NCBI GenBank assembly: GCA_018267055.1
Contig: JAFDZF010000061.1
Coordinates: 24,739-88,738 of the forward strand
Direction: 5' to 3'
DNA: 64,000 nt
DNA from: Bacteroidota bacterium
Lineage (GTDB): Bacteria; Bacteroidota; Bacteroidia; Flavobacteriales_F; PHOS-HE28
The translations under genes were made by a program, and so were the position numbers. This document shows positions 10,787 through 63,191 of this stretch, in pieces; within the stretch, counting starts at the first letter, position 1, and every line of letters starts with the position of its first letter. The notes under the pieces were generated by a model. The model saw only the letters and a list, made by a program, of their open reading frames with translations, was not told the DNA's origin and made no database searches.

Positions 10787-10788
10787 CG

Positions 10789-26636: not shown

Positions 26637-27485
26637 ATGCCCCGCGCTCCCCTCTCCCCTGCCGACCTGCGGGCCCTATTGGAAGACGCCTACGAGCGCT
26701 TCGCCCGCCCCGCCTTCATCACCGACGATCCGATCCAGGTGCCGCGCGCCTTCGCCAAGCGCGAGGACGCCGAAGCCATCGGCTTCCTCACCGCCACCAT
26801 CGCCTGGGGCCAGCGCAAGACCATCATCGCCAATGCCTGGAAGCTGGTGCGCCTGATGGACGAGGCCCCGCACGACTTCATCCGCCATGCCGGCCCGGCG
26901 GACCTGGACCGGCTGGACCGCTTCGTGCATCGCACGTTCAACGGCATCGACCTGCGTCATTTCGTCCTTGCACTGCGGCACCTGCATGCAGCCCATGGCG
27001 GGCTGGAAGGCGCCTTCCTCGCGAACGGTGCCTTCGGTGACGCGGGCACCGCCATCGCGCGCTTCAAGGAGCGGTTCTTCGCGATCCCGCATGCGGCGCG
27101 CACCCGCAAGCACGTGGCCGATCCGTTGCGCGGCAGCAACGCGAAGCGCATCAACATGTACCTGCGCTGGATGGTGCGGCCGGCCGACCGCGGCGTGGAC
27201 CTGGGCCTGTGGGAACGGATCCCCGCCTCCGCCCTGCACGTGCCGCTCGACGTGCACACGGGCCGGGTGGCCCGCGAGCTGGGCTTGCTGCATCGTTCCC
27301 AGGACGACTGGAAAAGCGTGGTCGAGCTGACGGAGGCGCTCCGCCGGCTCGACCCGCAGGATCCGATCAAGTACGATATCGCGCTCTTCGCCCTCGGTGT
27401 GGAGGGGAAGGCCGGCGATCAGCGCTGGAAGACCACGCGGGCCGTGCGCACAGCGCCCCGCTCGTCCGTGGCGCGCACCAGGTAG
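26637..27485 (+). CDS. TIGR02757 (DUF2400) family protein
   Basis: FITDDPIQVP...FLTATIAWGQRKTII...RKHVADP...KRINMYLRWMVR matches my memory of this family. The 3' end overlaps the convergent gene by 67 nt. Confidence 0.6.
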   Translation: MPRAPLSPADLRALLEDAYERFARPAFITDDPIQVPRAFAKREDAEAIGFLTATIAWGQRKTIIANAWKLVRLMDEAPHDFIRHAGPADLDRLDRFVHRTFNGIDLRHFVLALRHLHAAHGGLEGAFLANGAFGDAGTAIARFKERFFAIPHAARTRKHVADPLRGSNAKRINMYLRWMVRPADRGVDLGLWERIPASALHVPLDVHTGRVARELGLLHRSQDDWKSVVELTEALRRLDPQDPIKYDIALFALGVEGKAGDQRWKTTRAVRTAPRSSVARTR

Positions 27486-29857: not shown

Positions 29858-29921
29858 GGGCTGAAGAGTTTGGGCCCGTTCTACGTGATCGCCTCCGATT
29901 GGTTCCGCGAAATGCCGGACC

Positions 29922-29959
29922 AACAAAAAGAAAGACCCGACGAACGGTCGCCGGGTCTT
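29922..29959 (-). terminator. Rho-independent terminator of guaB
   Basis: Minus strand: AGACCCG(GC)GAC-CGTTC-GTCCGGGTCT-type stem (10 bp with a 2-nt bulge), followed by TTCTTTTTGTTGG. Confidence 0.6.
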
Positions 29960-33635: not shown

Positions 33636-33721
33636 CTTGCAAGAACGCGGGACCTGCATGATCCTTGCTGGTAGGAAGACGGCCGGAAGGCCGCTCCTGT
33701 TGCCGCGCTGCACGGACCGGT

Positions 33722-34675
33722 TCACGGGGCGGTGGGCACGGGGGAAAGGGCCGCCCGTGCCTGCTCGTATTCGGACAGCACCCGGCGCAGGATGTCACCG
33801 GCGGGCGCAATGTCGCGGATGGCGCCGCCCACCTGGCCGATCTCCAGCTCGCCCTGCTCCAGGTCGCCCTCGAACATGCCGCGCTTGGCGCGGGCGCGGC
33901 CGAGCAGGGCCTTGAGCTCGTCCACGGAGGCGCACCGGGCATAGGCGGCCTGCACCTCGGCGAAGAAGGCGTTCCGCATCATGCGAACGGGGGCCAGTTC
34001 CTTGAGCGTGAGGAGGGTATCCCCTTCCTGACTGGCGATGATGCGCTGCTTGAAGGCGGGGTGGCCGCTGGATTCCTCGGAGCAGACGAAACGGCTGCCC
34101 ATCTGCACCCCATCGGCCCCCAGGGCCATGGCGGCGAGCATGGCGCGGCCATCGGCGATGCCGCCCGCGGCGATCACCGGCACCTGCACGGCATCGCGGA
34201 CCATGGGCACCAGCACCAGGGTGGTGGTCTCCTCGCGCCCATTGTGGCCGCCGGCCTCGAAGCCCTCGGCCACCACGGCGTCCACCCCGGCGGCCTCGGC
34301 CTTGCGGGCGAACTTCACGCTGGCGATCACGTGCACCACGGTGATGCCCCGCTCTTTTAGCCAGCCGGTCCAGGTGGCCGGGTTGCCGGCGCTGGTGAAC
34401 ACGATGCGCACGCCCTCTTCCGCGATGATCGCCAGGTGCTTGTCCACATCGGGGTACAGCATGGGCACGTTCACGGCGAAGGGCTTGTCGGTGGCCGCCT
34501 TGCACTTGCGGATGTGCTCCCGAAGCACGTCGGGGTACATGGAGCCGGACCCGATGATGCCCAGGCCGCCCGCCTGGCTGACGGCGGCGGCGAGCCGCCA
34601 CCCCGAGCACCAGATCATGCCCGCCTGGACAACCGGGTACCGGACCCCGAGCAGGGAAGTAAGACGGTTGGTCAC
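33722..34675 (-). CDS. Nitronate monooxygenase / FabK-like FMN-dependent oxidoreductase (NMO family)
   Basis: YPVVQAGMIW, GGLGIIG, and GFEAGGHNG...VIAAGGIADG. Confidence 0.85.
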   Translation of the reverse strand: MTNRLTSLLGVRYPVVQAGMIWCSGWRLAAAVSQAGGLGIIGSGSMYPDVLREHIRKCKAATDKPFAVNVPMLYPDVDKHLAIIAEEGVRIVFTSAGNPATWTGWLKERGITVVHVIASVKFARKAEAAGVDAVVAEGFEAGGHNGREETTTLVLVPMVRDAVQVPVIAAGGIADGRAMLAAMALGADGVQMGSRFVCSEESSGHPAFKQRIIASQEGDTLLTLKELAPVRMMRNAFFAEVQAAYARCASVDELKALLGRARAKRGMFEGDLEQGELEIGQVGGAIRDIAPAGDILRRVLSEYEQARAALSPVPTAP

Positions 34676-38728: not shown

Positions 38729-39745
38729 CTAAAGGAAGCGGCGCAGCAGCCGGCGCACGATCCAGCCGAGCACCAGCGTGACCGCCACGCCCCACCAGAA
38801 AGCGCGGTGTGTCACGGTGGTCGTGATCAGGTAGGGCAGCAGGCGCCAGCGGAAGCCTTCGCCCCCGCCCTGGTTCGCGCTCCACCACGCCGCATCGTAC
38901 TGTTCGACGGGGAGCAGCTGCTGACCGGTAAGCGAGAGGCCGGTCCACCGGACGGTATCGGGCGACACGTCGGCGATCAGCAGGGCGTCGCGCGGCTCGT
39001 CCCGCAAGGCGCACTGGATGTAGGTGATGCCCGGCGCATCCGGCTGGAAGAAGATGCTGCTGGGGGCCGTGCCGCCCATGCTGCCGCTGATCCAGTAGAT
39101 GCGCATATGCATCGCAATCCGCTGCAGGAGCGGACGGATGTCCTTCGTGAAATTGGTGCCGGTGAGCGAACGGGTGTTGCCGCGGAAGCGGGGACCGTAC
39201 CGATCATCGTCCTCGGCCCAGATGGGGCGGTGCGAAAGGATGAGCAGCTGGCGCAGGCCCGGCGTAGGAGCGTCGGCCAGCGCGCGGAGCACATCGAGGT
39301 CCGCTGCACCCAATGAGCCGCCGTTCGCTTCCGTGTCGAAGAGCAGCACCTGGGTGCCCGCCCCGCCGATCGCGATGGGACCGAGCCCGGGGGCTTCCGC
39401 TCCGCGCGCCACGTCGTGGTTGCCGGGCACGTTGAAGAAGGGCATCCGCAGCCGGTGGAAAAAGGCTCGGTCGTACCGCGGCCGGTCGGCCACCGGGTCC
39501 ATGAAGAGGTCGCCCGTGCTCAGGAACAGGCCGGCACCGAGCGCGTTGATGGTGTCCAGTCCCGCCAGGAGCGTGGCGGCCGGAAAGCCGCTGCGGTTGG
39601 TGCTTTCCCCGTGGAAGTGCCCGCCGATCAGGATCCGGAAATGGCCGGTGCTGTCCGCCGCACCCACCTCCAGGCCGTTGAACGGGCTGCGTTGCGCGCT
39701 CGCGCCAACGGCGAGCAGGAGCCCGATGGCGGCCAGGGCCCTCAT
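38729..39745 (-). CDS. Membrane-anchored calcineurin-like metallophosphoesterase
   Basis: Signal peptide MRALAAIGLLLAVGASAQ. Metallophosphatase motifs GGHFHG, TGDLF and PGNHD. C-terminal TM FWWGVAVTLVLGWIV. ATGA overlap with the upstream gene. Confidence 0.7.
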   Translation of the reverse strand: MRALAAIGLLLAVGASAQRSPFNGLEVGAADSTGHFRILIGGHFHGESTNRSGFPAATLLAGLDTINALGAGLFLSTGDLFMDPVADRPRYDRAFFHRLRMPFFNVPGNHDVARGAEAPGLGPIAIGGAGTQVLLFDTEANGGSLGAADLDVLRALADAPTPGLRQLLILSHRPIWAEDDDRYGPRFRGNTRSLTGTNFTKDIRPLLQRIAMHMRIYWISGSMGGTAPSSIFFQPDAPGITYIQCALRDEPRDALLIADVSPDTVRWTGLSLTGQQLLPVEQYDAAWWSANQGGGEGFRWRLLPYLITTTVTHRAFWWGVAVTLVLGWIVRRLLRRFL

Positions 39746-42219
39746 TCGGCGGCCGTGTTCATGGCATCCCGTACCGGCCGGCCGTCCACATCGATCACGC
39801 CGCCGGCGCCGATGTCGTACGCCCCGGGCCCGTCCGGCACGGCCACGTTCTCCAGGCGGATCCGCGGGGGGCCGTAGCGCATCTCGCTCTTGCCGGCATG
39901 GGCGGCCGGCGCCCCGCGGAGCGTCCCGCCCTGCATCGTGATCAGCGCCCCCTGCTTGCTTTCCAGCCCCGCTCCCCCGCTCGCCACCGCACAGCCGGTG
40001 AGCGCCACTTGCGCATGGACGGACGCCTTGCAGCCGATCCCGGAGGCGCCTTCCACGGCCCCGTTGGATACCGAGAGCCCGCCGCCTTCCACGGTGATGG
40101 CATCGTCGGCCGCACCGGCGAAACGCGTGGCCGAGAGCTGTGCCTGCGCGAAGTGCGTCCGCAACTGGTCGCCTCCCCGCTCGAACGAGCAGGCGTCCAT
40201 CCGCAGCTCGCCGAGCGCCACGTCGAGGACGGTGCTGGCCGTGCCCCGGAACACCACGTGCTCGAGCGTCGCATCGGAGCGGTAGAACGACAGGTCGGCC
40301 CGTGCGCCGGACTTCCGCTGGAGCGTCAGGAGGTGCACGTGCTCCAGCCGGGAACGGCCTCCGGCCTCCAGCACATGGATGCCCTTGGAACTGCTGTCCG
40401 GGCTGGTGATGAGGATGGGGGCATCCGCGGTGGCCACCCATTGCAGGGGCGAGCGGCTGATCACTTCCGCCCCGCCCACCACCGACAGCTTCAAGGGCGC
40501 GAAGGCGTTCACCACGTAGCCGGCCGGGATCACCAGGTCGCGGTCGATGGTCCAGGCCCCCGGGGGGATCGTGATCGTGCGCGCCCGTTCATCCACCACC
40601 AGGAAGGGGAACGACGGCACGTTGGGCGCCTTGTGCGCATCGAGGCGCGCATCCTCCACGGCTTCCAGCGCGAAGGGGAAGACCTCCACCTGCTTGCGCA
40701 CGGAAGCGCCCGGGATATGGCAACCCAGCTTCATCCCCAGGGCCAGCAGGCTGTCGGTGGCCCCGGGCACCGCGAACCGCACCGCCATCGGCCGGCCCAC
40801 CTGGCCGCGTTGGCGCGCGGGCAGGACCGTGGGCGTTGCCGCGGCGATGCGCCGGCCATCGGCCAGCTCAAGACTGTCCATTTGCACGGGCAGGCTTTCC
40901 ACGGGCACGAGCAGCAGGTCGAGCGTGTCGTGCTTCAGGCCCTGGGCATAGGCGTGGAACCCTTTCGGCAGCCCCAGCAGGGTGCGGATCGCCTCCTGGT
41001 TCTTGTAGTACAGGCCGCGGTCCAGTTCCTTGTAGGGGAACTCGCCATACAGCGTGGCGCTGGCCGTGTCCAGGGCCCCGGACAGGGCGCTGAAGGCGCT
41101 GTCCAGGTAGGCGGTGCGCCCCATGCGCTCAAGGTGGTGCACGTACGCGGCGAAGATCGCCGGGGCCTTGAAGAGCGCGGTGTGCAGCTCGTCGTCGGGC
41201 CGGAACGGACCGGTGCAGCGGTAGGCGGCTCCCAACTCGCGCAACGGGAAGGCGCTGAAGCTCTCATAGCTCACCGGCTCGAGCCGCTGCATGGCGGGAT
41301 CGAAGTAGAACTTCACGTCGCTCCAATCCATGCTGCGGTACCCGCCGATGAGGTCGAGGAGGGCGAGGCGGCGCGCGGTGCGGTCCACGTCGAAGACGGC
41401 GCTCGCAGGCAGTTCACCGTTCCGGAACGCCTCCATCACGGCCAGGGCCTGCTCGAACTGCTTCCGCTGCTTGGGGTCGGCAGCGATGTCCTTGGTCCCA
41501 TAAGCATCGAGGGCCGCCGCCTGATAGGCGCCATAGGCATCGTCCACCTTGATGCCTTCCACGCCGTTGAGGCGATGCCGCCAGAACAGGCCGGGATCGA
41601 AACGGACCAGGGGACCTTCCAGCCGGCCATTGTTCTCCAGCAGCTCCGGCCCGAAATGCTCTTCGTAGGCATAGATGCCGAGGTCCTCGCCGTTCAGCTC
41701 CACGCGGCAGAAGCCATAGCGCAAGGCCACCAGCCCCTCCCCCTTCATCAGGCGGTGGTAGAACCAGTCGCAGAGGTAGTTGCGCGTGCCGGGGTGCTGC
41801 AGCGAGAAGCGCTTCATGCCGAGGAAGCCGCCGTCCTTGCGGGCCGTCACGCGGAAGCTCCATTTCCGCCCCTTCACGTGGTCGGTCATCTTGCCCTTGA
41901 TGCGCAGCTTGCCCTTGAAGGCCTGGCCGTCCGCCTCGAACCGGCCGGGCACTTCGCCCCCCTCCTCCTGCTCGATCACGCCCGCCTCCCTCGCGCGCTC
42001 CACCACGGCCTCCAGCACCGCCATGTCCTGCTCATCCACGGTGATGCGGATCACCGGCGGGTCCACCGCGAAGCTCTTCGGGTAGTTGCGCGCCCACTGG
42101 CCCAGGAAGGTCGCCAGGCCGGGATGTCCGCGCCGGTGCAGCGCACGGTCGCCGAGGAAGGCGCCCGCCGCCAGGGCGACGAGCAGGGTCGATAGGATCC
42201 AGGGCCAGCGTTTGCGCAT
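39742..42219 (-). CDS. CotH kinase-family protein fused to a C-terminal parallel beta-helix region
   Basis: N-terminal TM anchor (MRKRWPWILSTLLVALAAGAF). A CotH-like block (KGKLRIKGKMTDHVKGRKWSFRV...FSLQHPGTRNYLCDWFYHRL...VELNGEDLGIYAYEEHF). The last ~300 aa have G/A-rich PbH1-like repeats. Confidence 0.7.
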   Translation of the reverse strand: MRKRWPWILSTLLVALAAGAFLGDRALHRRGHPGLATFLGQWARNYPKSFAVDPPVIRITVDEQDMAVLEAVVERAREAGVIEQEEGGEVPGRFEADGQAFKGKLRIKGKMTDHVKGRKWSFRVTARKDGGFLGMKRFSLQHPGTRNYLCDWFYHRLMKGEGLVALRYGFCRVELNGEDLGIYAYEEHFGPELLENNGRLEGPLVRFDPGLFWRHRLNGVEGIKVDDAYGAYQAAALDAYGTKDIAADPKQRKQFEQALAVMEAFRNGELPASAVFDVDRTARRLALLDLIGGYRSMDWSDVKFYFDPAMQRLEPVSYESFSAFPLRELGAAYRCTGPFRPDDELHTALFKAPAIFAAYVHHLERMGRTAYLDSAFSALSGALDTASATLYGEFPYKELDRGLYYKNQEAIRTLLGLPKGFHAYAQGLKHDTLDLLLVPVESLPVQMDSLELADGRRIAAATPTVLPARQRGQVGRPMAVRFAVPGATDSLLALGMKLGCHIPGASVRKQVEVFPFALEAVEDARLDAHKAPNVPSFPFLVVDERARTITIPPGAWTIDRDLVIPAGYVVNAFAPLKLSVVGGAEVISRSPLQWVATADAPILITSPDSSSKGIHVLEAGGRSRLEHVHLLTLQRKSGARADLSFYRSDATLEHVVFRGTASTVLDVALGELRMDACSFERGGDQLRTHFAQAQLSATRFAGAADDAITVEGGGLSVSNGAVEGASGIGCKASVHAQVALTGCAVASGGAGLESKQGALITMQGGTLRGAPAAHAGKSEMRYGPPRIRLENVAVPDGPGAYDIGAGGVIDVDGRPVRDAMNTAAE

Positions 42220-42296
42220 CCGGTGGTTCGCGAAGCGTGCAAAAGTAGCCGGGTTCCGGGGTGCGCAGGCCGCGCGCCCAAGGGCACACCCGGACC

Positions 42297-43676
42297 TCAG
42301 CGGGCGGGCAGGATCAATGTCGGCGCCTGTTCCGGCTCGGGCGGTGCTTCCTCGCCCGCTCCCTCCACTTCCTCCCGCTCCCGCCACAGCACGATCTCAT
42401 CCTCTGTGATCACCGTGATGAGAATGATGAGGATGATGGTGAAGGGATTGAGCGAACCGGTGAGCCAGCTCTCGTACATCACCGAGAAGAGCACGGAGAA
42501 CATCACGGCGAAGGCGATGGGCACCCGTTTGTTCGCCTTGAAGAAAATGAGCACGAAGCTGCGCAGGTACAAGGCCAGGCCAATGACCCCCGTATTGAAC
42601 CAGAGCGTGAGGTAACTGTTGTGCACGCCGCCCTGATGCCCCATACTACGCAGGTACGGATAGTTCTGCCGCATGACGTACTCGTCATTGGAGAACCCCC
42701 CTCCGATGAGGAAATGCCCTCCTTCGTTAATCTTCTGCCAGGCGAACCCCCAGGCGAAGTAGCGTCCGGAGCCGTCCTCCAGGGTGTTCACGCGGAAATA
42801 GTCCTGCAATCCCAATGCGGTGAGGATGGCGGGCAGGTTGTTGGCCACCAGTTCCGAGACGCCGATGAAGGCCAGGAAGGCGATGAAGCCGATGAAAGGG
42901 GAGAGCGCGAAGAACCGCGAGAACAACAAGAACATCAGCGTGGAGACGATCGATGTGCGGGAACCGCACTTGATGAGAAAATAAGCAAGAACGCCATAGA
43001 TGAACAGCTTGGTCCATCCCCCGAAGAGATCGCGCTTCACCTTATCAAGCACGGCGACCAACATCAAGAACAGGAAACAGAAGATGGCCAGGCCATTGGG
43101 GTTCCCGAAGTAGCCCCGGAAGCGTCCACCCACGAACGACCACCAGCCCGGTCCGATGAAAGGCATCACCCATTGGGAGAGCAGCACGGTCAGAAGGAAC
43201 AGGACCAAGTGTTTGAAGAACATCCATCCCTGGCGACGATAGGCAAAGAGCACGTAATTGGGGATCACCAAATAGAGCAAGGCATAGGAAAGCGTCTTCT
43301 GGATGGAGGTGATCGGATCGGCGGCCCGCACGATGGGGATCAGAGCGAACACGAAAAAGGGCATGAACACGCGGAAGACCGATGCGTGCGGCTGCATGCG
43401 GACCTGGTCCATGAGGAAGATCAGCGAAAGCGCCACGATGTAGGTGTACTTGGCGGTCTTCACCACCCGCATCGCCACGATGCCTGGGTTCATGTCAGAC
43501 ACCACCAGGACGATGATGAAGCCGAAGAGCATGTCGGGCCACATCTCCCGCCGGCGCATGAGGAACACGCTGACGGGCAATACCAGATAGAGCAATGGCC
43601 CCATGAACACAGTGGTGGCCAGCCAGAACAGGATGAGCCCGAAGAGCTGGAGATGGTCTCGGAAGAACCCGCTCAT
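42297..43676 (-). CDS. O-antigen ligase / Wzy-like polymerase family membrane protein
   Basis: About 10-12 TM segments, a large loop, and the pattern GNPNGLA...GSRTS...HNSYLTLWFNTGVIG typical of the Wzy_C domain. GC is visibly lower (~52-55%) than the flanks. Confidence 0.75.
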   Translation of the reverse strand: MSGFFRDHLQLFGLILFWLATTVFMGPLLYLVLPVSVFLMRRREMWPDMLFGFIIVLVVSDMNPGIVAMRVVKTAKYTYIVALSLIFLMDQVRMQPHASVFRVFMPFFVFALIPIVRAADPITSIQKTLSYALLYLVIPNYVLFAYRRQGWMFFKHLVLFLLTVLLSQWVMPFIGPGWWSFVGGRFRGYFGNPNGLAIFCFLFLMLVAVLDKVKRDLFGGWTKLFIYGVLAYFLIKCGSRTSIVSTLMFLLFSRFFALSPFIGFIAFLAFIGVSELVANNLPAILTALGLQDYFRVNTLEDGSGRYFAWGFAWQKINEGGHFLIGGGFSNDEYVMRQNYPYLRSMGHQGGVHNSYLTLWFNTGVIGLALYLRSFVLIFFKANKRVPIAFAVMFSVLFSVMYESWLTGSLNPFTIILIILITVITEDEIVLWREREEVEGAGEEAPPEPEQAPTLILPAR

Positions 43677-45331
43677 CGGTCAGGCACTGGGGTTGATGTC
43701 CGACGTCCACCGGACGGATGCATCTCTCCGGCCACTTGGGGCCCGCGCTCATGGGCGAACGTGAAGAGCGCGTCGACATGACCCTGCCAGGTCTCCATCG
43801 TAAGCGGCCTGCGCCAGCGGCGGATATGACGGGGCATCTCTGCGGCGATGGCATCGCGCATGGCCCTGGCCTCGGCCTCCATACGCCCTGCGCTCAAGGG
43901 GCCCTTCAACAGCCGCTCCAGGGTATCCGCGAAGCGCGCTTGCAGCTCTGGCGACCGCATGCAGGCCTTATAGAGCCGGGCCGTCGGCGAGGCATGCCGC
44001 ATCAGGTGCTTCACCATGTCATAACCCGGGCTGGTGGCCATCCCCAACCCCATGTCGCTGTCGCCCATCAGGAAGCGCCAGCGGCCATCGCGCACGCCCA
44101 CCGTGTCGGCAGGCCCCGTATAGCGCCACCACTTCACGTTCTGGTCCGGCCAGTCGATATTGCCCAGGACCACCTGTGCGGCGATGTAGGTGAGGAAGCC
44201 GTCCACATCGAGGGAACGGGCAAGGCTGTCCATGAAAGCGGGACCGCTGGCGTCCCACCGTTCGGCCTTCGTCAGGAACCGGCCGAACCGCCGGACCTCC
44301 GCGCTATCCCCATCGTAGAGCTCGAGCCGGTCGGCCAGGATGGTCACCTGCTTCGCCCGCAGCCCGTACCGCCGGGCGATCTCTTTCGCGTTCATCCGTG
44401 GGCGGATGTTGTGCAGGCCCCAGTAGGCCCCATTGACGTAGACCACGCAGGGCACGTACCCGGCGGTGCCGAACGGCAGGTCCTTGCACAGCCGGTGCTG
44501 CAAGGCATCGCGGAAGAAGGTGCGGTCCTGGTCGTTCCCCGAGGCCCGCAGGATGAGCGCATGCGGTCCCTTCGCCCCTCCATCCCCGAAGAGGTCGAAT
44601 ACCGGATCGTCGGCCAGGGTCACCCGCAGGGCATGCTGCGGAAAGCCGCGCGTGTTGTTGCCATTGATGCGCAAGGCACAATCGCTGCTGAACACGGGAA
44701 CGCCATCGCGGTCGAAGTAGTCCAGGTGGGCCTGCCGCTGCCAGCGCTTGCCCTTGAACTGGAAGTTCCCCGGGTACTTCCACCATTTCTGCGAGCGGGG
44801 ATAGCGCTGCACGACTTCCTCATCGGTGTGGAAGATGGCATGCCCCACCACGTAGATGCCCGTGTCCGGATCGAACAGCGCCCCGGGCGGAAGGGTCAGC
44901 GCCACCACCGGCAAGGCCCCCCCCCGAGGCACGAACACCCGTTCGGTGAGCGCGCCGCTGCGCCCATGCGCGTCCACCGCGCAGGCACGCACCGTCAAGG
45001 CCTCGGGGAAATCGCCGATGGGGTGACGCCACTGCACGGACGTCGGCGTGTGGATCAGGCGCTCGATCGCATGGGATCCCTCCGGCACGAAAGGACCGGC
45101 ATAGACCGGGCTGCCGGCGTCGGGCGATGTGCCATCGAGCGTATAATGGATCGTGCTCCCTGCCGGGCCTTCGATGCGGACCCGGCCTTCCGCATCCCGG
45201 GCGATGGACGGGGCCTCCAGGTCGCACCGTCCACTGTGGGCCTTGGAGCGTGGCAACGCTGCGGTGAGCAGGACCGCCAAGCCGACCAGGGCCGCAAGCA
45301 CGGATGCCGAACGGAGATCGCCGCGCTGCAT
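43673..45331 (-). CDS. CotH kinase-family protein (secreted or anchored), second copy
   Basis: N-terminal anchor, an Fn3-associated-like TIHYTLDGTSPDAGSPVY, and a CotH core (LRINGNNTRGFPQHALRV...LILRASGNDQDRTFFRDAL...VVYVNGAYWGLHNIR). ATGA overlap with the wzy-like gene. Confidence 0.75.
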   Translation of the reverse strand: MQRGDLRSASVLAALVGLAVLLTAALPRSKAHSGRCDLEAPSIARDAEGRVRIEGPAGSTIHYTLDGTSPDAGSPVYAGPFVPEGSHAIERLIHTPTSVQWRHPIGDFPEALTVRACAVDAHGRSGALTERVFVPRGGALPVVALTLPPGALFDPDTGIYVVGHAIFHTDEEVVQRYPRSQKWWKYPGNFQFKGKRWQRQAHLDYFDRDGVPVFSSDCALRINGNNTRGFPQHALRVTLADDPVFDLFGDGGAKGPHALILRASGNDQDRTFFRDALQHRLCKDLPFGTAGYVPCVVYVNGAYWGLHNIRPRMNAKEIARRYGLRAKQVTILADRLELYDGDSAEVRRFGRFLTKAERWDASGPAFMDSLARSLDVDGFLTYIAAQVVLGNIDWPDQNVKWWRYTGPADTVGVRDGRWRFLMGDSDMGLGMATSPGYDMVKHLMRHASPTARLYKACMRSPELQARFADTLERLLKGPLSAGRMEAEARAMRDAIAAEMPRHIRRWRRPLTMETWQGHVDALFTFAHERGPQVAGEMHPSGGRRTSTPVPDR

Positions 45332-45338
45332 GCGGTGC

Positions 45339-45755
45339 TCAAGAAGGGTCGGCGGCGGAGGACCAGCGGAGCAGCAGGGCCACCGGGACCATCAGCACGA
45401 GGGCGACAAGCGCGGCGCTGGAACCGCATCCGATACCGATGACCACCGCCGCCAACCGGGGCAGGGATGAGCGCCAGGTGCCCTCCTGCGGCGCGGACAG
45501 CCCTGGGCGGACGAGAAGCGCCACCCCGACCAGCGCAATGCTCAACGGCACCGACGCCCGCACGAAGAGCACGGCCAGCGCCACCAAGGCGGCCAGCACC
45601 GCCAGGTGCTTCGGGGCGCTGTCGCCCGAGGCCCGGCCGACGAGCCCTGCCACGAACGCGAGCAACGCGGCCAGCAGGACGGCGAGCACGCCATTGCCGA
45701 TGTCATACGGGGTGAACGCACCCATCTGGTCGGCCAGCATTCCTTTCAGATCCAT
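45339..45755 (-). CDS. Hypothetical small integral membrane protein
   Basis: 138 aa from the internal ATG 45755, with three or four hydrophobic helices. It is the first gene of the minus-strand CotH/Wzy operon. Confidence 0.5.
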   Translation of the reverse strand: MDLKGMLADQMGAFTPYDIGNGVLAVLLAALLAFVAGLVGRASGDSAPKHLAVLAALVALAVLFVRASVPLSIALVGVALLVRPGLSAPQEGTWRSSLPRLAAVVIGIGCGSSAALVALVLMVPVALLLRWSSAADPS

Positions 45756-45842
45756 GGGCAGGGATTTCGCGGAGCGGAGCGGCCAAATGTAGGCAAGGGC
45801 CCAACCCGCGTTCCCACTACCTTCGGCGCGCCTCTTCCACCG

Positions 45843-46745
45843 ATGCGCAGCATCCCCACCGGCCTTTTCCTGCTCCTGGCGTTCCTCGCCCGGAACGCGT
45901 CCGCGCAGATGGTCACCACCGCGGGCACGACGCTCGCGATCGATGCGGGCACCTCGCTCCGCGTGGAAACGCCCCTGACCTGGTCCATCGCCGACGGGGC
46001 CACCGTGGTGAACAACGGCACCATCGTCCTCGGGCCGGAGGCCGACCTCCAGGAAGCCTTGGGCGCCCCCATCACCGGCGGTGGCACCGAGCGCACCACG
46101 CGGACACTGGCAGGCCCGTTGAACGCGGAAGCGCCGGGAGGGCTCGGCCTGGCGATCACCACCGATGCCGCCTTGGGCACCACCACCGTGGTGCGCGGCC
46201 ACCTCTCCCATACCGATACGTCCGATGCGGTCTCCATCGCCCGGTGGTACCGCGTGCTGCCCGCCAACAACAGCGGACTGAACGCCATGCTGGGCTTCGG
46301 TTACGATGCCACCGAGCTCAATGGCATCACCGAGCTTGGGCAGGTGGTGCACATCGCCACCTCGGGCGACACCGTCTGGTCACCGCTGAGCAGCTCGGTC
46401 CTGCCGGTGGCCAGCACCGTGAACGCCGGTCCGGTGGACAGCCTGGGGCATTTCACCACCTTCGAAGGGGAGGTGCCCATGGACATCGGCGCAGCGCATG
46501 CGGCCGGCGCGCTCCCTTACCTCGTGCCGACCGTGGCCACGGACCGCGTCTTCCTGCACCTGCCCGAAGGCATGCGCATCTCGCGGATCGAGGTGATCGC
46601 CATGGACGGACGGATGCTCCAGCGCATCACCGGCGACCTGCATGCGCAGGCGGGCGGAACGCCCATCGACATCGACAGGCTGCCGCCGGGACGCTACGTG
46701 CTGCGGCTTGACGGCCGTACCACGTTGGACCTCATCAAGCGATGA
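45843..46745 (+). CDS. Secreted protein with T9SS C-terminal sorting domain
   Basis: Signal peptide MRSIPTGLFLLLAFLARNASAQ at the internal ATG 45843. C-terminal VFLHLPEGMRISRIEVIAMDGRML...LPPGRYVLRL CTD. Confidence 0.7.
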   Translation: MRSIPTGLFLLLAFLARNASAQMVTTAGTTLAIDAGTSLRVETPLTWSIADGATVVNNGTIVLGPEADLQEALGAPITGGGTERTTRTLAGPLNAEAPGGLGLAITTDAALGTTTVVRGHLSHTDTSDAVSIARWYRVLPANNSGLNAMLGFGYDATELNGITELGQVVHIATSGDTVWSPLSSSVLPVASTVNAGPVDSLGHFTTFEGEVPMDIGAAHAAGALPYLVPTVATDRVFLHLPEGMRISRIEVIAMDGRMLQRITGDLHAQAGGTPIDIDRLPPGRYVLRLDGRTTLDLIKR

Positions 46746-47524
46746 AGCGGTCGATCCTCCTCCTTGCCGGATGCGGCCTGCTGGCCGGCATGACGCACGC
46801 CCAGTGGGAGGTCCCCACGAGCGTGGTGCTGGACGGTGCCGACCCCGCGCAGCGCCAGGTGACCGGGTTGAGCGCCCCCACCGGGGAAGCGAACGGTGCC
46901 AACCTCGACGCGGACCGTTACCGGACCACCAGCTTCGGCGTGGCGGAAGGCGATGGGGCGCTCACGCTCCACCTCACCCCCTCCTTGCAGGCCTATGTTC
47001 CGGGACTGCGCCTCACCATTTCGCCGCAAACCGTCAATCAGGGCGATGTCACCTTGGACGTGGACGGCCTGGGGCCGGTGCCGGTGCGGAAATACCTGAC
47101 CCTGCCCCTGGACAGCGGCGACCTGGTGCCCGGCATCCCGGTGGACCTGATCTACGACGGGGCCGTGTTCCAAGTAAACAATCAATTATACCCCGCTTGT
47201 CCACCCGGCATGACCGCGATCGGCCGTGAGGCCTGCATCGAGCTGACAACGAACGAGGCAGCGAACTGGTATGCAGCCGGCACCCGCTGTGTCAATCGCG
47301 GGTTGCGGCTCTGTTCATTCAGCGAATGGATGACCGGATGCCTGAACGACCCCTCGTTCATCACCACCGTTTCCGACTACGAGTGGGTGGATGATGCCGC
47401 CAATCTGTACAATTCAGCAAAGACGATGGGGATCAGCAATATCACCTCCCTGATCGATTGCAGAGGCGGAGGACATCGGGATCCGCTCGGCCAAGCCCCT
47501 TACCGCTGTTGCTCCAGCCGATGA
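46742..47524 (+). CDS. Secreted Cys-rich protein, paralogue 1 (unknown N-terminal domain + mini FGE/SUMF1-like C-terminal domain)
   Basis: Signal peptide. 8 conserved Cys. Motifs CPPG, RLCSFSEW, DYEWVDD and terminal RCC. ATGA overlaps on both sides. Confidence 0.7.
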   Translation: MKRSILLLAGCGLLAGMTHAQWEVPTSVVLDGADPAQRQVTGLSAPTGEANGANLDADRYRTTSFGVAEGDGALTLHLTPSLQAYVPGLRLTISPQTVNQGDVTLDVDGLGPVPVRKYLTLPLDSGDLVPGIPVDLIYDGAVFQVNNQLYPACPPGMTAIGREACIELTTNEAANWYAAGTRCVNRGLRLCSFSEWMTGCLNDPSFITTVSDYEWVDDAANLYNSAKTMGISNITSLIDCRGGGHRDPLGQAPYRCCSSR

Positions 47525-48300
47525 AGATCGCAATGACAGCACTGTGGACGATGTGCACCGTGGTCGTTCAGGCACAAGTACACCTGGATCGCTCACTGGT
47601 CCTGACCGGTACGAACGGAGCGGCACACAGTATGGACGGATTGGCCCCGGCGGAACAAGGAAGCGCGTTAATCACGCTGGGCAGTGCCCGCAATGGTGAC
47701 CACACATGGGCGCAAACGGGCGGAACACCCATGACGATCACCTTGAACATGACCCCTCCTTGCACAGCCTATACCCCAGGCTTGTCGATCACGTTCATGC
47801 CGAACGCAGATGCCGCAGGACCTATCCTGCTCAATGTGGACGGGCTCGGCCCGCGCCGACTGCTAAGGGGCGATCGTGGGGCAGTGGATTTCGGCCAGAT
47901 CGGACCAGGGAGGGTCGTCCAGGTGATCTATGCGGATACCTGTTTCGTGCTGAAGGACCGCCCCCGGGAAGGATGCCCGGCAGGGTTCCTGGCAGCGAAC
48001 GACCGCTTGTGCATCCAACAGAACGACACCTTGTTCGTTTCCATCTATAGTGCAAGCAAATGGTGCCTCCAACGCGGGGCTCGCTTATGTACCTGGGACG
48101 AATACATCCAAGGCTGCACAGCTACCCAAGCCCAGTTGCTGGGATTGTTCGACGATTGGGAGTGGGTGGATGACAGCAGCGACCACACCCATACTGCTGA
48201 CCAAGTGGGGCGATACTCCTGCCGAGGACTGCGGAACACCGGAGCGGTCGAGACCCCGAACAATTATGGCGGCGTGCGCTGCTGCTATCATCCCCGATGA
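47521..48300 (+). CDS. Secreted Cys-rich protein, paralogue 2
   Basis: Start at ATG 47521 (MKIAMTALW...). Motifs CPAG, RLCTWDEY, DWEWVDD and terminal RCC. ATGA overlaps. Confidence 0.7.
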   Translation: MKIAMTALWTMCTVVVQAQVHLDRSLVLTGTNGAAHSMDGLAPAEQGSALITLGSARNGDHTWAQTGGTPMTITLNMTPPCTAYTPGLSITFMPNADAAGPILLNVDGLGPRRLLRGDRGAVDFGQIGPGRVVQVIYADTCFVLKDRPREGCPAGFLAANDRLCIQQNDTLFVSIYSASKWCLQRGARLCTWDEYIQGCTATQAQLLGLFDDWEWVDDSSDHTHTADQVGRYSCRGLRNTGAVETPNNYGGVRCCYHPR

Positions 48301-49088
48301 GCCCTTGGATACCCTGCGCTCTGCTGGTGACCGTTCTGGCCCTGCAAAGCGACCTCTCCGCACAAGTGCATATCGATCGACCCATCCGGCTGGAAGGATC
48401 GGATGCCGCGAACCGTCAGGTCGTCGGCCTGCGTGATGGTGATGGCGAGAGCGACGCCCTGAACGCGGGCACCCTCCGTGCCGCACCCTACCGGTATGCA
48501 GAAGTGGCCGGCACCACGCAATGGGACGTCACCTTGACACCCACAGTGTCCGAAGCACACGAAGGACTTTGCCTGCTACTGCTCAGCAACGATGGGAACA
48601 GCGGCCCGGTCATCATTGGACTAAGCTCGGCAGGGAGCTTCCCTTTGCTGAAAGGGCCTGGTCTCCCTCTCCAGGCCGGAGATGTGCTGCCGGGTGAATT
48701 GGTAAGCGCCGTGTTCGACGGCACCACTTTCCAATTGATCGCCGCCCGAAGACAGGATATCCGCCCCTGCCCTTCAGGCAGCGTAGCCGTGAACGAACAG
48801 TACTGCATCGAGATCGCGCAGCACGATACGGCGGAGTTCGACGTGGCCAGCATCGCCTGCGGGCAACAGAACGGTCGCATGTGTACCTGGTCCGAGTGGT
48901 GGGTCGCCTGTAATAAGCTGAGCACCCTGGGCCTTCAGGACATGGTGGGCGATTGGGAATGGACCAACAATGCCGCCAATGCGGATGGCTACGTGCGCGT
49001 GGTCGGTCAAAGCTCATGCACGCAGGCGGCCACTTCCGTAGGCTGGGGAGGATTGCAGCGCAGCTTCCGCTGTTGCTACCGGCGGTAG
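48297..49088 (+). CDS. Secreted Cys-rich protein, paralogue 3
   Basis: Signal peptide ...LQSDLSAQ. Motifs CPSG, RMCTWSEW, GLQDMVGDWEWTNN and terminal RCC. Confidence 0.7.
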   Translation: MSPWIPCALLVTVLALQSDLSAQVHIDRPIRLEGSDAANRQVVGLRDGDGESDALNAGTLRAAPYRYAEVAGTTQWDVTLTPTVSEAHEGLCLLLLSNDGNSGPVIIGLSSAGSFPLLKGPGLPLQAGDVLPGELVSAVFDGTTFQLIAARRQDIRPCPSGSVAVNEQYCIEIAQHDTAEFDVASIACGQQNGRMCTWSEWWVACNKLSTLGLQDMVGDWEWTNNAANADGYVRVVGQSSCTQAATSVGWGGLQRSFRCCYRR

Positions 49089-49089
49089 C

Positions 49090-50121
49090 TCATCCCAAAG
49101 CCTGGTCGTAGAGCGCCACCAGCCGCTGGTTGCGCACGCGGAGGTCGAACTTCTCCCGCACCACCGCCAGGCTCTCCGCTCCCATCCGGGCCAGCAGCGC
49201 CGGATCGTCCATCAGCTGCCGCACGTGCTCCGCGATGCGGTCGGCGATCGCGTCGCTCGGCACGCCGGCCACCGGCAGCAGCCAGCCGTTGCGCCCCTCC
49301 TGCACCACCTCCGGAAGCGAGCTGGTGGCCGAACAGATCACCGGCAGCTGGGCCCCCATGGCCTCCAGGATGGTGTTGTTGAAGGGATCGCTGAAGGTGG
49401 TGCTCACGAACACGTGCGCCTTTCGCATGAGCTGCAGCAGGCCGGCATGGGGCAGGCCCCGGTGCAGGGTGATGCGCGGGTCCTCCGCGATGGTGCGCTC
49501 GGCCCAGGCGATGTCCTCCGCGGACGGGAACACGCCCCAGTCCACCTCCAGGTTGCTTACGATCCAGAGCTGCGCGTCGGGGCGGCCGAGCCGTTGGAAA
49601 GCCTTGAGCAGCTCCACACCGCCTTTGCGGTAGAACCCGTTGCCGGCGAAGAGGACGGTGAAGCGGCCGGGGTCCTTGGCGCCGGGCAGGTACTGCTCCA
49701 CCGCCCGGTAGATCACGGTCATCTTCGCCGGGTCCACCCCCGCGGCCGCCAGCTTGTCGCGGTTCAGCCCCAGCGTGTGGTGGCTGGTGAACAGCAGCCA
49801 CTTGCAGTCCTTGTCCGCCAGGCGGCGAAGCCCCCACTGGAACAGCGGGTTCCGCTCCGACATCGGCTTGTAGCGCGGCAGATAGCTCTCCACCTCGATC
49901 ACCCACGGGCGGTGGTTGGCCACCACGCTGTTGTAGGTATGGTAGAGGTCGGCCGGCTTCAGCGGGAAGAAGAGCTTGGTGTGCGCGAGGAACTGGCGCT
50001 CGATGTGCAGCACGTGCCAGGGGATGTCCACCATGCGCGAATAGCGGTAGCCCTCCGGCGGATTGCTGAAGCAGTAGTGCTGCCAGTAACGGGTCCGGTT
50101 GCTGATGCCGACGACGCGCAT
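49090..50121 (-). CDS. Glycosyltransferase (GT4-like, GT-B fold)
   Basis: C-terminal GT1/GT4 signature: FVSTTFSDPFNNTILEAMGAQLPVICS...EVVQEGRNGWL. Confidence 0.8.
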   Translation of the reverse strand: MRVVGISNRTRYWQHYCFSNPPEGYRYSRMVDIPWHVLHIERQFLAHTKLFFPLKPADLYHTYNSVVANHRPWVIEVESYLPRYKPMSERNPLFQWGLRRLADKDCKWLLFTSHHTLGLNRDKLAAAGVDPAKMTVIYRAVEQYLPGAKDPGRFTVLFAGNGFYRKGGVELLKAFQRLGRPDAQLWIVSNLEVDWGVFPSAEDIAWAERTIAEDPRITLHRGLPHAGLLQLMRKAHVFVSTTFSDPFNNTILEAMGAQLPVICSATSSLPEVVQEGRNGWLLPVAGVPSDAIADRIAEHVRQLMDDPALLARMGAESLAVVREKFDLRVRNQRLVALYDQALG

Positions 50122-60554: not shown

Positions 60555-60579
60555 GGTCGCTAGAGCAATGTGAGCGTGC

Positions 60580-60587
60580 CAAATGTA
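60580..60587 (-). promoter_or_regulatory. Candidate -7 promoter box TACATTTG for the mini-ORF/xrtF operon
   Basis: Exact TAnnTTTG match on the minus strand, 26-33 nt upstream of ATG 60554. Confidence 0.4.
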
Positions 60588-60782
60588 GAAAGATCACCGA
60601 ACGGACTTCCAGCGGCCCGTGCTCATTTCTATCAACGATCCCCAGGCCCCGCGGGCGCCCGGGCCCGGGCACGTCGCGATCGGCCCGCGGCGAGGCGCGA
60701 TGCATATATTCGCAGCCTTCCAAGAAAGCGGCACCGGGCGCTGGCGGCAGCGGCGCAGGCGCCTCCCCCCGAAGCGAGCACT

Positions 60783-63191
60783 ATGGCAGCAGCGGCAGGC
60801 CCCAAAGCGGGGATCATCGACGTCAACGACCTCCGCTACTTCCTCCGGATCTTCTCGAAGAACTGGTACTTCGTGGTGGTGGCCGTCATCCTCTCGGCCG
60901 TCCTCTCCTACCTCTACTCCTACAAGATCCCCGACGTGTACGGGGCCAGCACCCAGATCCTCCTACAGGACCGGGAGTCGTACAACTACCAGACCCAGGT
61001 CTACCAGAACATCGGTTACGTGGGGGCCTATGGCGACATCGTGAACCAGAAGCGGGTGCTCACCAGCTATGACCTGATCGACCGCACGCTGGACAAACTG
61101 GATTTCGACGTCTCATACTACATCATCGGCCGGTTCAAGACCTCGGAGGTCTATGGCTCGCTTCCGTTCTCGGTGCAGATACAGCCCTTGAACGCCAGGC
61201 TTTTCGAGAAGCCGTTCGACCTGCGGATCGTGGATGCGGACCAGTTCGAGCTGAGCTACGATCCTGGTTCAGGGCTGGTGACCAAGACATTCCCGTTCAA
61301 CACCGACATCGCGGACAGCGATTTCACCCTTCGCGTGCAGAAGACGCAGCAGCTCCTGCCGTCCACCCTGCGGAAGTTCAGCGAGAGCGATTACCGTTTC
61401 ATCCGGCATGGCAGGCCCTGGCTGGTGGCCAAGTATGGCTCGGGCATGGACGTGGTGAACCTTGACTACACCACCATCCTTCATGTGACGGTGGAGGACG
61501 AGATCCCCGCACGGGCGAAGATGTTCCTGGATACGCTCAGCCAGGAATACATCCGCTATACGCTGCAGAGCGAGTTCGACATCAATGAGAACACGCTAGG
61601 CTATATCGACAAGCAGCTGGATGAAGTATCGGTGATCCTGAACAATTATGAGGACGATCTGCAGCGCTTCATGCTGAGCAAGAACATCCTCGACCTCGGC
61701 AAGGAGAACGACCGGTACTTCGACCAACTGGTGGGATACGATTCCCGGAAACGCCAGCTGGAGATGATGATCGAGAGCGTGGACGCGCTGGAGAACTACA
61801 TCCTGGCCCTGGGCGATGAGAAGCTCATCCCGCCTTCCTTCTATATCCTGGATGACGATGTATTCCTGAAGAGCACGCTGACCGAGCTATATACCATGCA
61901 GATGGACCGGAACCGGAAGCTGTACGACGCCACGCCGGACAACCGGGCCATCAATACCTTGGATGAGACCATTCAGCTCACCCGGGCCAACCTTCTGGTG
62001 TACTTGAAGAACACCCGCAAGGCCATACGGGAAAAGATCGCTGACGTGGAGAAGCAGATCAGCGATTACAACCAGCTGATCCGGGCGGTGCCGCAGAACC
62101 AGCGGGACATCCTGAACTTCCAGCGGAAAGTGAGCGTGAACGAGCGGCTCTATGAGTTCCTATTGGAGAAGCGGGCCAATACGGTGATCGCACGCGCAGG
62201 CATCATCCCGCAGACGAAAGTGATCGAGGCGGCCCGGATCCTGGGCGTTGTACGGCCGGACAAGATGAAGATCCTGTACACCTTCGCTATCGGCGGTCTT
62301 CTCATCTCCATGGTGCTGGTGTTCCTCCGGGTGCTCTTCTATGACCGCCTCGAGAACGCCGACCAGCTGCGCCAGGTGACGCAATTGCCGGTGTTCGGCG
62401 AGATCATCGCCAGCGAGAAGGCCGAGGAGAACTACGTGGTGGTGGACAGTGACCCGAAATCGGCCATCACCGAGAGCTTCCGTACGATCCGCACCAACCT
62501 GGAGTACCTGCCGGCCACCGAGCAGGGCAAGGTGGTGATGGTGACGAGCTACCGCCCGAACGAAGGCAAGACCTTCTGCTCGGTGAACCTCTCGGCCATC
62601 CTGGCCAAGGCCGGGAAGCGGGTGCTGCTGCTCGAGCTGGACCTGCACAAGCCCAAGGTGGCGGTGGGCCTGGGCATGAACAGCGCGGTGGGCCTCAGCA
62701 ACATCCTGGTGGGCAAGGCCGGGTTCGAGGAGTGCATGCTGCCCACCCAGATCGAGAACTTCCACGTAATCCTCTCGGGCCCCACGCCGCCGAACGCCTC
62801 GGAGCTGGTGCTGAGCAAGCGCCTGCCGGAGCTCTTCGAGTTCGGGCGCCGCCACTTCGACTACGTGCTCATCGACACTCCCCCCGTGGGCCTCATCACC
62901 GACGCCCTGCTGATGATGCGCCATGTTGACGCCACCCTCTTCGTGATCAACACGCGCTTCGCCAACAAGGACCACATCCGGAACGCGCTCGAGGTGCACC
63001 AGAGCAACGCGGCGAAGAACTTCGGCTTCATCCTCAACGGCGTGCGGATGAAGAAGAGCAAGTACTACTACAACACCAACTACGGCTACGGCTACCGTTA
63101 CGCCTACGGCTATGGCTACGGGTACGGCTACGGCAACAAGGGCCGCAAGAGCGAACAGCGCCGCGCCTCGACCAAGAACCAGAACACGTGA
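60783..63191 (+). CDS. wzc: Polysaccharide-biosynthesis tyrosine autokinase (Wzc/GumC-type chain-length determinant + BY-kinase)
   Basis: N-terminal TM + Wzz-like periplasmic coiled-coil region + second TM. Walker A VTSYRPNEGKT, Walker A' LLLELDLHKP, Walker B VLIDTPP. C-terminal Tyr cluster. Start at ATG 60783. Confidence 0.9.
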   Translation: MAAAAGPKAGIIDVNDLRYFLRIFSKNWYFVVVAVILSAVLSYLYSYKIPDVYGASTQILLQDRESYNYQTQVYQNIGYVGAYGDIVNQKRVLTSYDLIDRTLDKLDFDVSYYIIGRFKTSEVYGSLPFSVQIQPLNARLFEKPFDLRIVDADQFELSYDPGSGLVTKTFPFNTDIADSDFTLRVQKTQQLLPSTLRKFSESDYRFIRHGRPWLVAKYGSGMDVVNLDYTTILHVTVEDEIPARAKMFLDTLSQEYIRYTLQSEFDINENTLGYIDKQLDEVSVILNNYEDDLQRFMLSKNILDLGKENDRYFDQLVGYDSRKRQLEMMIESVDALENYILALGDEKLIPPSFYILDDDVFLKSTLTELYTMQMDRNRKLYDATPDNRAINTLDETIQLTRANLLVYLKNTRKAIREKIADVEKQISDYNQLIRAVPQNQRDILNFQRKVSVNERLYEFLLEKRANTVIARAGIIPQTKVIEAARILGVVRPDKMKILYTFAIGGLLISMVLVFLRVLFYDRLENADQLRQVTQLPVFGEIIASEKAEENYVVVDSDPKSAITESFRTIRTNLEYLPATEQGKVVMVTSYRPNEGKTFCSVNLSAILAKAGKRVLLLELDLHKPKVAVGLGMNSAVGLSNILVGKAGFEECMLPTQIENFHVILSGPTPPNASELVLSKRLPELFEFGRRHFDYVLIDTPPVGLITDALLMMRHVDATLFVINTRFANKDHIRNALEVHQSNAAKNFGFILNGVRMKKSKYYYNTNYGYGYRYAYGYGYGYGYGNKGRKSEQRRASTKNQNT
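63063..63134 (+). repeat. Imperfect TAC-GGC hexanucleotide tract encoding the BY-kinase tyrosine cluster
   Basis: Codons TAC TAC TAC AAC ACC AAC, then nine (TAY-GGN-like) units, giving YYYNTNYGYGYRYAYGYGYGYGYG (12 Tyr in 24 aa). Confidence 0.7.

Follow-up and report, generated by a model that had tools for sequence, protein, structure and literature searches.

The closest described relatives of P1, P2 and P3, three tandem secreted paralogues encoded behind a cargo gene of the type IX secretion system (T9SS) in a Bacteroidota polysaccharide locus, are parts of bacterial and phage fibres. The four genes lie at positions 45843-49088, + strand, of the 64,000-nucleotide stretch of contig JAFDZF010000061.1 (assembly GCA_018267055.1) that we call the window, and the three paralogues together are referred to as the trio. 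Each mature chain consists of an N-terminal segment of about 40 residues, a beta bead and a compact, presumably disulfide-rich C-type-lectin-like domain (CTLD) that is devoid of the Ca motif. The Cys-rich domain is homologous to the tip of Bd2740 (8OKS; PMC10769870), one of the mosaic adhesive trimer (MAT) fibres of Bdellovibrio bacteriovorus, with which it has the pattern CPxG...C...C...G.xLC...C in common. The Bd2740 tip is trimeric and lacks a Ca site, and the phage protein Mtd is the only homologue that shares its trimer mode (PMC10769870). The bead, together with a preceding DA-x-N-like segment, aligns to residues 233-323 of gp47 of Pseudomonas phage Pa193 (9B45), a trimeric beaded fibre (PMC11456595), and both structural relatives are obligate trimers (PMC10769870, PMC11456595). 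MAT fibres resemble the trio in being cellular, in being built from phage-fibre modules, in ending in a Ca-independent lectin-fold tip and in their mosaic evolution at domain boundaries. However, MAT proteins are homotrimers of 600 to more than 1000 aa encoded by single scattered genes of a predator, whereas the trio proteins have 259-263 aa and one bead each, and are encoded by three order-locked paralogues in a polysaccharide locus of non-predatory Flavobacteriales. In beaded phage fibres the same bead module recurs in many long fibre proteins; unlike these, the trio has neither a baseplate-attachment region nor a phage context, and it carries Sec signal peptides.

The closest functional analogy is virophage DSLV2, in which three consecutive fibre-tip paralogues that cluster by gene position were shown biochemically to form a 1:1:1 heterotrimer that binds lipopolysaccharide (PMC12724248). 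Both systems have three consecutive paralogues derived from a normally homotrimeric tip and falling into position-wise orthogroups. The likeness is one of organisation, and no sequence relationship is expected: the DSLV2 tip is viral and has a T4 gp37-like fold, and the heterotrimer is demonstrated there and inferred for the trio. The Mtd protein of Bordetella phage and other variable proteins of diversity-generating retroelements (DGRs) have a trimeric fibre tip with a C-type-lectin fold, and the trio is likewise variable between strains. In contrast to these systems, its variation takes the form of allele replacement with saturated synonymous divergence (dS), and no reverse transcriptase was found among the 31 window proteins scanned with Pfam or NCBIfam, a scan that did not include the open reading frames at about 13.7-27.3 kb. 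Diversification by a DGR was rejected, there being no template or variable repeats and no repeat family that touches 46742-49088. The C-terminal domain of Legionella Lcl, a DUF1566 domain, has a similar bacterial-adhesin context, and a viral DUF1566 model matches the trio lectin domain (TMt 0.74); however, PF07603 has no match in the trio at E <= 1 and the Cys pattern is a different one. Among animal proteins, collectins combine a trimeric stalk with a lectin head, and the three tandem paralogous genes of C1q yield a heterotrimeric head. Both are useful working models for the trio, although it has no collagen stalk, lacks their Ca/sugar motifs and has no kinship with them beyond the CTLD superfamily. 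The trio belongs neither to the MAT class (judged by length and single-gene encoding), nor to phage fibres (context), DGR variable proteins (reverse transcriptase and template repeat) or true C-type lectins (Ca motif). It is best described as set apart from the known fibre-type adhesins and lectins by being minimal, tripartite, Sec-exported and integral to a conserved polysaccharide locus. We give about an even chance to the reading that P1, P2 and P3, once exported by Sec, make up a heterotrimeric 1:1:1 lectin knob associated with the surface glycan of that locus.

Evidence for this reading comes from the behaviour of the three genes as one unit. The 74 loci that came out of a scan of 185,579 species genomes belong without exception to Flavobacteriales or Bacteroidota metagenome-assembled genomes; together with other fetched loci these gave 75 non-redundant loci, in which gene order and neighbours were established by tblastn. 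The order P1-P2-P3 is found in 56 of the 75 and P1-P2-P3-P1-P2-P3 in 10, the other nine being truncated at contig ends, incomplete, or one member too long or too short, and a permuted order occurs in none of them. In a neighbour-joining tree of 250 members the P1 (83), P2 (85) and P3 (82) orthogroups are perfectly monophyletic, so that orthogroup follows gene position across three consecutive paralogues just as in DSLV2; the triplication therefore took place before any of these species arose, and all three classes have since been kept. At the double-trio loci, identity between A and B copies is about 40%, A copies reach up to 85% identity with A copies across species and B copies match B, which indicates that the whole trio was duplicated once, anciently, as a unit. 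That these old orthogroups keep a fixed order, and are duplicated and recombined together, points to a hetero-oligomer. Because both domains come from obligately trimeric modules, because the virophage heterotrimer supplies a precedent and because the genes behave as a set, a 1:1:1 heterotrimer would be the most economical assembly.

The layout of the operon bears on the same question. Gene 1 (45843-46745, +, 300 aa), P1 (46742-47524, +, 260 aa), P2 (47521-48300, +, 259 aa) and P3 (48297-49088, +, 263 aa) are joined by ATGA stop/start overlaps on the + strand at 46742-46745 (gene 1/P1), 47521-47524 (P1/P2) and 48297-48300 (P2/P3), exactly as the first-pass annotation of the window had placed them, and gene calling done independently on a Logan assembly contig that carries this locus returned the same four genes. 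As expected of an operon, the genes have overlapping stop and start codons, lie on one strand and have no internal terminator. The four-gene arrangement is far beyond chance, having been found again in the 75 non-redundant loci, and in nearly all of these the gene junctions overlap or sit within a few nucleotides, a 4-nt overlap being the commonest class. Only these conserved overlaps speak for the co-expression proposed in the first-pass annotation. In run X10, a wastewater sample and the only run labelled as RNA-Seq, a 258-nt contig that bridges the P2/P3 overlap is 100% identical to 48105-48362; the locus is sparsely covered, and carry-over of DNA is possible. One protein, P0104 (486 aa, AT-rich), reads a P3-type and a P1-type gene through as a single open reading frame. 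It was considered as a Rosetta-stone fusion and rejected as an artefact, given that the terminal Cys cluster is missing from its first unit and a signal peptide is still present on its second; the read-through is probably due to a frameshift or to gene calling, and the protein places both the family and the P3-to-P1 junction of duplicated trios in low-GC organisms.

Fixed order and coupling also weigh on a doubtful alternative, namely that the operon encodes three separate homotrimeric lectin knobs of different specificities, a repertoire that is merely co-transcribed and comparable to phage receptor-binding proteins or to the 21 MAT fibres of Bdellovibrio. All solved homologues are homotrimeric, as this would require, and the extra trios of some genomes resemble the expansion of a repertoire. 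In addition, the loop that follows a shared WEW motif has a distinct conserved signature in each orthogroup (DDxSxHTHTA in P2, within the P2-specific conserved loop WEW(I/V)DDxSxHTHTAxQxGR), and such orthogroup-specific loops could mean different ligands. In a repertoire, however, copy number and order should both vary, whereas one member of each class, a fixed order and duplication of the whole set are seen, and translational coupling favours equimolar synthesis.

The assignment of trio domains to trimeric modules was obtained with a profile built from 50 family members and searched against the PDB, and from structure models. Profile residues 49-138, the bead, match gp47 (9b45, residues 233-323) with E 7e-11, and residues 147-201, in the Cys-rich domain, match the C-terminal domain of Bd2740 (8oks_B) with E 6e-4 and with four Cys aligned. 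The AlphaFold model of P2 (pLDDT 88; helices at 175-184 and 192-205) has as its top Foldseek matches 9b45_2 and then 8oks chains A and B (TMt 0.72-0.76; E 4.6e-4), followed at probability 1.0 by dozens of CTLDs, among them aggretin, CLEC9A, LOX-1 and MR CRD4 (TMt 0.5-0.76), and the matches also include Mtd (1yu4) and the sulfoxide-synthase-type enzyme EgtB (rank 40, E 0.026). Against viral predicted structures there were 50 significant matches, mostly tail fibres, and P1 matches the PHROG tail protein phrog_4900 with E 1e-4. The N-terminal domain, for which the first-pass annotation had no name, is by both profile and fold a phage tail-fibre bead module. The profile and fold searches that it had proposed thereby resolved both domains, with no curated family matched. 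The Cys-rich domain has the alpha/beta fold of CTLDs, two helices packed against beta sheets; Ca/sugar motifs (EPN/QPD plus WND) are absent from the consensus of all three orthogroups, and it is therefore a CTLD by fold and not a canonical C-type lectin.

The first-pass annotation had left open whether the paralogues are binding or enzymatic modules, and the C-type-lectin-like fold favours binding. We consider it very improbable that the Cys-rich domain is catalytic and acts on the polysaccharide, for example in the manner of FGE-type enzymes or sulfoxide synthases, whose fold is likewise that of C-type lectins. The appearance of EgtB among the Foldseek matches would fit such an activity, as would some invariant residues, including the His-x-His loop of P2. 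Against this, FGE-type enzymes are much larger than a domain of about 110 aa, adhesive tips and lectins give the best matches, and no catalytic-looking set of residues is common to the three paralogues.

That P1, P2 and P3 are paralogues is borne out by their alignment, in which P2 and P3 are each 31% identical to P1 and 47 columns are invariant, among them the eight Cys described earlier as positionally conserved in the C-terminal domain; eight Cys are present in the mature protein of most of the 250 family members. P1 consists of a signal peptide (aa 1-20), Q21, the N-terminal segment, a tail-fibre bead (aa ~62-147, nt ~46925-47182, +) and the lectin-like domain with its eight Cys (aa ~150-260, nt ~47189-47521, +). 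In P2 the signal peptide (aa 1-18) and Q19 are followed by a bead at aa ~61-146 (nt ~47701-47958, +) and a lectin-like domain at aa ~150-259 (nt ~47968-48297, +); P3 has its signal peptide at aa 1-21, Q22, a bead at aa ~62-150 and a lectin-like domain at aa ~155-263 (nt ~48759-49085, +) whose first Cys is Cys158. Pfam and NCBIfam scans of all three gave nothing at E <= 1. About 100 homologues of P2 are all close to 260 aa long and all from uncultured Flavobacteriales, and every named one is called 'hypothetical'. The P1-P3 family has never been described and is without a Pfam or NCBIfam model.

The bead on its own is far more common. An exhaustive search with the bead profile found 22,549 representatives at E <= 1e-3, with up to 14 copies in long proteins, some of which also have Peptidase_S74 or Gly_rich_2, and the two-domain form of 260 aa is a far smaller set than the bead-containing proteins. 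The bead appears to be a widespread repeat domain that has not been modelled. Three such proteins, P0103, P0105 and P0106, are 1232-1869 aa long and contain 10-14 bead stretches each without meaningful Pfam annotation.

The secretion predicted for the paralogues in the first-pass annotation holds for the family as a whole. The presequence is hydrophobic, about 20 aa long (median 19-21 aa) and ends in a small residue at -1, and in 250 of 250 family members it is followed directly by Gln. Gln at +1 corresponds to the Q-rule for signal peptidase I substrates of Bacteroidota (PMC5837995, PMC10653852), and P1-P3 are Sec/signal-peptidase-I substrates. No conserved lipobox was found in the 250 members, 22 of which have a lipobox-like motif, and a lipoprotein anchor for P1 was rejected, the LLAGC of the window protein being kept in only 8 of 83 members. 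A T9SS C-terminal domain (CTD) has no match in P1-P3 at E <= 1, and the chains end in the RCC motif of the lectin domain.

Comparison of close strains revealed that part of the trio has been exchanged. Up to 47172, at the P1 bead/lectin boundary, a related sludge strain from run X3 shares 98.3% identity with the window, and beyond this point it cannot be aligned across most of the C-terminal part of P1, P2 and P3. Contig L079 has 84-96% nucleotide identity to the window over the rest of a 20-kb locus, versus 56-82% in 150-nt windows and 62-79% by gene domain over ~47190-49088. Relative to these close strains the segment at 47190-49088 (+), which begins at the P1 bead/lectin boundary and extends through to the operon's end, is replaced by an anciently diverged allele: its dS is 1.07-1.73 (saturated) as opposed to 0.15-0.50 in flanking genes, its dN/dS is 0.08-0.25, and GC content at third codon positions (GC3) falls at the P1 domain boundary to 0.55-0.71 in the segment from 0.83-0.94. 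Judged by these comparisons, the event is recombinational replacement by an old functional allele at a domain boundary, and not decay or recent positive selection. Phage fibres and MAT proteins evolve by the same mode. A swap this sharp is documented for the lineage of the window only; across species pairs the secreted proteins (CotH, encoded in the adjacent divergent operon, gene 1 and P1-P3) diverge faster than the Wzy_C membrane protein or the glycosyltransferase.

The swapped lectin cassette suggests an exposed specificity determinant. Glycosyltransferases of the locus are 91-96% conserved between strains whose lectin cassettes differ strongly; it is therefore probably not the structure of the polymer made by the locus to which the cassette responds, and this constancy beside the cassette swap hints at surface exposure. 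As a natural marker, the cassette reports strain-level surface diversity. The GC3 of the trio genes lies below that of their neighbours in the window (0.68-0.79 versus 0.83-0.94) and also in the distant species L044, L047 and L077, for which repeated import of foreign alleles and a constraint on codon usage are candidate causes.

A phage-like bead and a GC3 below that of neighbouring genes are also what a degraded prophage or tailocin remnant in a polysaccharide locus might leave behind. This explanation is effectively refuted. There are no phage genes near the trio in the window or in more than 70 other loci, where the neighbours are glycan-biosynthesis genes; the trio holds the same position in more than 70 species, its signal peptides obey the Q-rule, its dN/dS indicates purifying selection, and single-sequence searches of 2.9 million viral contigs and of GenBank phages returned no relatives.

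The genomic setting ties the trio to surface glycans. The window contains a complete Wzx/Wzy-type polysaccharide cluster, with a priming phosphoglycosyltransferase (10636-12204), a Wzc-like chain-length/tyrosine-kinase protein (60570-63191), Asn-synthase-like, epimerase, dehydratase and UDP-GlcNAc 2-epimerase genes and transferases of the GT2 and GT4 families. Divergent from the trio operon is a module on the - strand (39742-45740). Its first gene encodes TM133, a small conserved membrane protein of 133 aa without family match (45339-45740, -). It is followed by a secreted CotH-kinase-family protein of 552 aa with N-terminal CHB_HEX_C_1 and Fn3_assoc domains (43673-45331, -; PF08757, E 2.4e-39) and a Wzy_C membrane protein of 459 aa from the O-antigen ligase/polymerase family (42297-43676, -; PF04932, E 1.6e-10), and then by a second, divergent CotH-like protein of 825 aa, which is syntenic (39742-42219, -; PF08757, E 1.3e-7). 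A 338-aa secreted protein without family match also belongs to the module. TM133 stands upstream of the trio in 49 of 55 loci, and CotH with Wzy_C lies divergently upstream in 48 of the 55 loci with enough upstream DNA. 'Orphan' trios that lack CotH and Wzy_C still sit among GT2, UDP-GlcNAc 2-epimerase or MBOAT genes. Support for the link to surface-glycan genes that the first-pass annotation had drawn is in this respect very strong, and the co-occurrence with polysaccharide loci that it wished to see in other genomes was found in more than 70 other loci. Gene 1 is present in 60 of the 69 loci with room to see it. Directly downstream of the trio is a GT4 gene in 34 of 63 loci and, in 18 of 63, an MBOAT gene, usually with an SGNH-like gene. 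The pair of MBOAT and SGNH/GDSL-like genes (e.g. L001 11608-14027 and L002 11596-14029), typical of polysaccharide O-acylation, is absent from the window.

The trio and the CotH/Wzy_C module are conserved together in more than 70 Flavobacteriales species from sludge, lake and soil. The pairing of secreted CotH-family kinases with a Wzy_C protein is flagged here as puzzling, and the literature searched on CotH in loci of this type offered nothing relevant. Some members of the Wzy_C family are protein O-oligosaccharyltransferases, and in Bacillus coat proteins are phosphorylated by CotH kinases. These known activities, and the tight adjacency of the trio to CotH and Wzy_C genes, raise the unlikely alternative that P1-P3 are structural cargo, O-glycosylated by the Wzy_C protein, phosphorylated by the CotH kinases, or both, and built into a surface layer. 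The Bacteroidota O-glycosylation sequon D-(S/T)-(A/I/L/V/M/T) is modestly enriched in the family (1.46 versus 0.88 per protein), and 78% of P1 members have LDSADL, which contains the sequon D-S-A. However, the window P1 has LDSGDL at residues ~122-127 (nt ~47105-47122), which is not a sequon, and the enrichment was dropped as evidence, being too weak. Orphan trios that occur without CotH or Wzy_C also stand against a role as cargo, as does the fold, which is a classic binding fold. The two readings are not exclusive, and a heterotrimeric lectin would be compatible with modification of this kind. A broader and tentative scenario is that of an obligate heterotrimeric lectin, derived from phage fibres, as a dedicated and strain-variable part of an undescribed surface-glycan or glycoprotein assembly system that depends on CotH kinase and Wzy_C; here gene 1 would display the lectin, and strains would swap it as a specificity cassette that serves cell-cell adhesion, floc formation, or evasion of phages or predators.

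The heterotrimeric knob can be outlined as follows. Disulfides would form in the periplasm after export, and one copy each of P1, P2 and P3 would assemble into a short 1:1:1 heterotrimeric fibre or knob, with N-terminal segments and beads as the stalk and the three different lectin domains as an asymmetric glycan-binding tip. The complex would bind cell-surface glycan, either holding or organising the polymer made by the flanking genes or serving as an adhesin, and would be presented through, or cooperate with, gene 1 and the CotH/Wzy_C module, gene 1 being the likely link to the cell surface. Strains exchange the lectin cassette by recombination at the domain boundary, as happens with phage fibre tips. 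Several considerations weigh against this picture. The known homologues (Bd2740, gp47 and Mtd) are homotrimers, and the 1:1:1 stoichiometry is drawn from genomics and by analogy. There is no canonical sugar-binding motif (EPN/QPD-WND) in the trio, and the conserved glycosyltransferases argue against the locus's own polymer as the sole ligand. The trio has no T9SS CTD, lipobox or other recognisable route across the outer membrane and could be purely periplasmic. If the heterotrimer proves true, the trio would represent, in bacteria, a counterpart to heteromeric lectin heads of the C1q or collectin kind, and a cellular case of the route by which three paralogues replace a homotrimer, so far shown for the virophage fibre. 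The trio also offers a handle on surface-polysaccharide organisation and recognition in abundant activated-sludge bacteria, with relevance to floc formation.

At its 3′ end the operon is bounded by a convergent gene for a GT4-type glycosyltransferase of 343 aa (49090-50121, -), the stop of P3 ending at 49088 and that of the GT4 gene beginning at 49090, with 1 nt between them as earlier described. The divergent spacer at the 5′ end depends on the start that is chosen: the 87 nt given in the first-pass annotation assume that the upstream gene starts at 45755, and with the gene caller's start at 45740 the spacer is 102 nt. It contains a perfect copy of the Bacteroidota -7 motif TAnnTTTG, TACATTTG, at 45784-45791 on the - strand, directed toward the TM133-CotH-Wzy_C operon. 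Upstream of gene 1 there is no perfect copy on the + strand, where the nearest resemblance by eye is TACCTTCG at 45817-45824. The window has 11 matches to TAnnTTTG versus 2.85 expected, a count that 0 of 100 shuffles reached; the copies at 45784-45791 and 42240-42247 (-) mark the starts of the TM133-CotH-Wzy_C unit and of the gene for the 825-aa CotH-like protein, and nine others lie elsewhere in the window. A sigma-70 promoter scan is uninformative for Bacteroidota.

Gene 1, which would link the complex to the surface, is a genuine but divergent T9SS cargo. Its product has a signal peptide (~aa 1-21), an invariant Q22, an all-beta N-terminal domain (~aa 23-210) with no significant match in the PDB, a low-confidence linker (aa 212-221) and a T9SS type-A sorting domain (~aa 225-300, nt ~46515-46742). 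The window protein matches TIGR04183 with E 0.026, which is below threshold, but 7 of 10 diverse orthologues match this model, 2 of them above the curated cutoff, and precomputed matches to PF18962 exist for several homologues. In the structure model (pLDDT 87.8) the last ~75 aa superpose on CTDs of T9SS substrates, 8glk_D (TMt 0.74), a substrate CTD solved with the translocon, and also 8gl8_D. Orthologue matches to TIGR04183, homologue matches to PF18962 and the CTD fold all agree with the assignment first made from the window alone. T9SS sorting domains also occur beside an orphan trio and elsewhere in the window. The orphan trio L047 (4927-8844) has as neighbours a TPR-adenylate/guanylate cyclase and a multicopper oxidase that carries a T9SS sorting domain, and the window has three more cargo genes, encoding a protein with Por_Secre_tail (68-1288; E 3.6e-10), one with FG-GAP/DUF7619 and Por_Secre_tail (27419-29926) and one of 716 aa with a CHU_C sorting domain (31575-33725).

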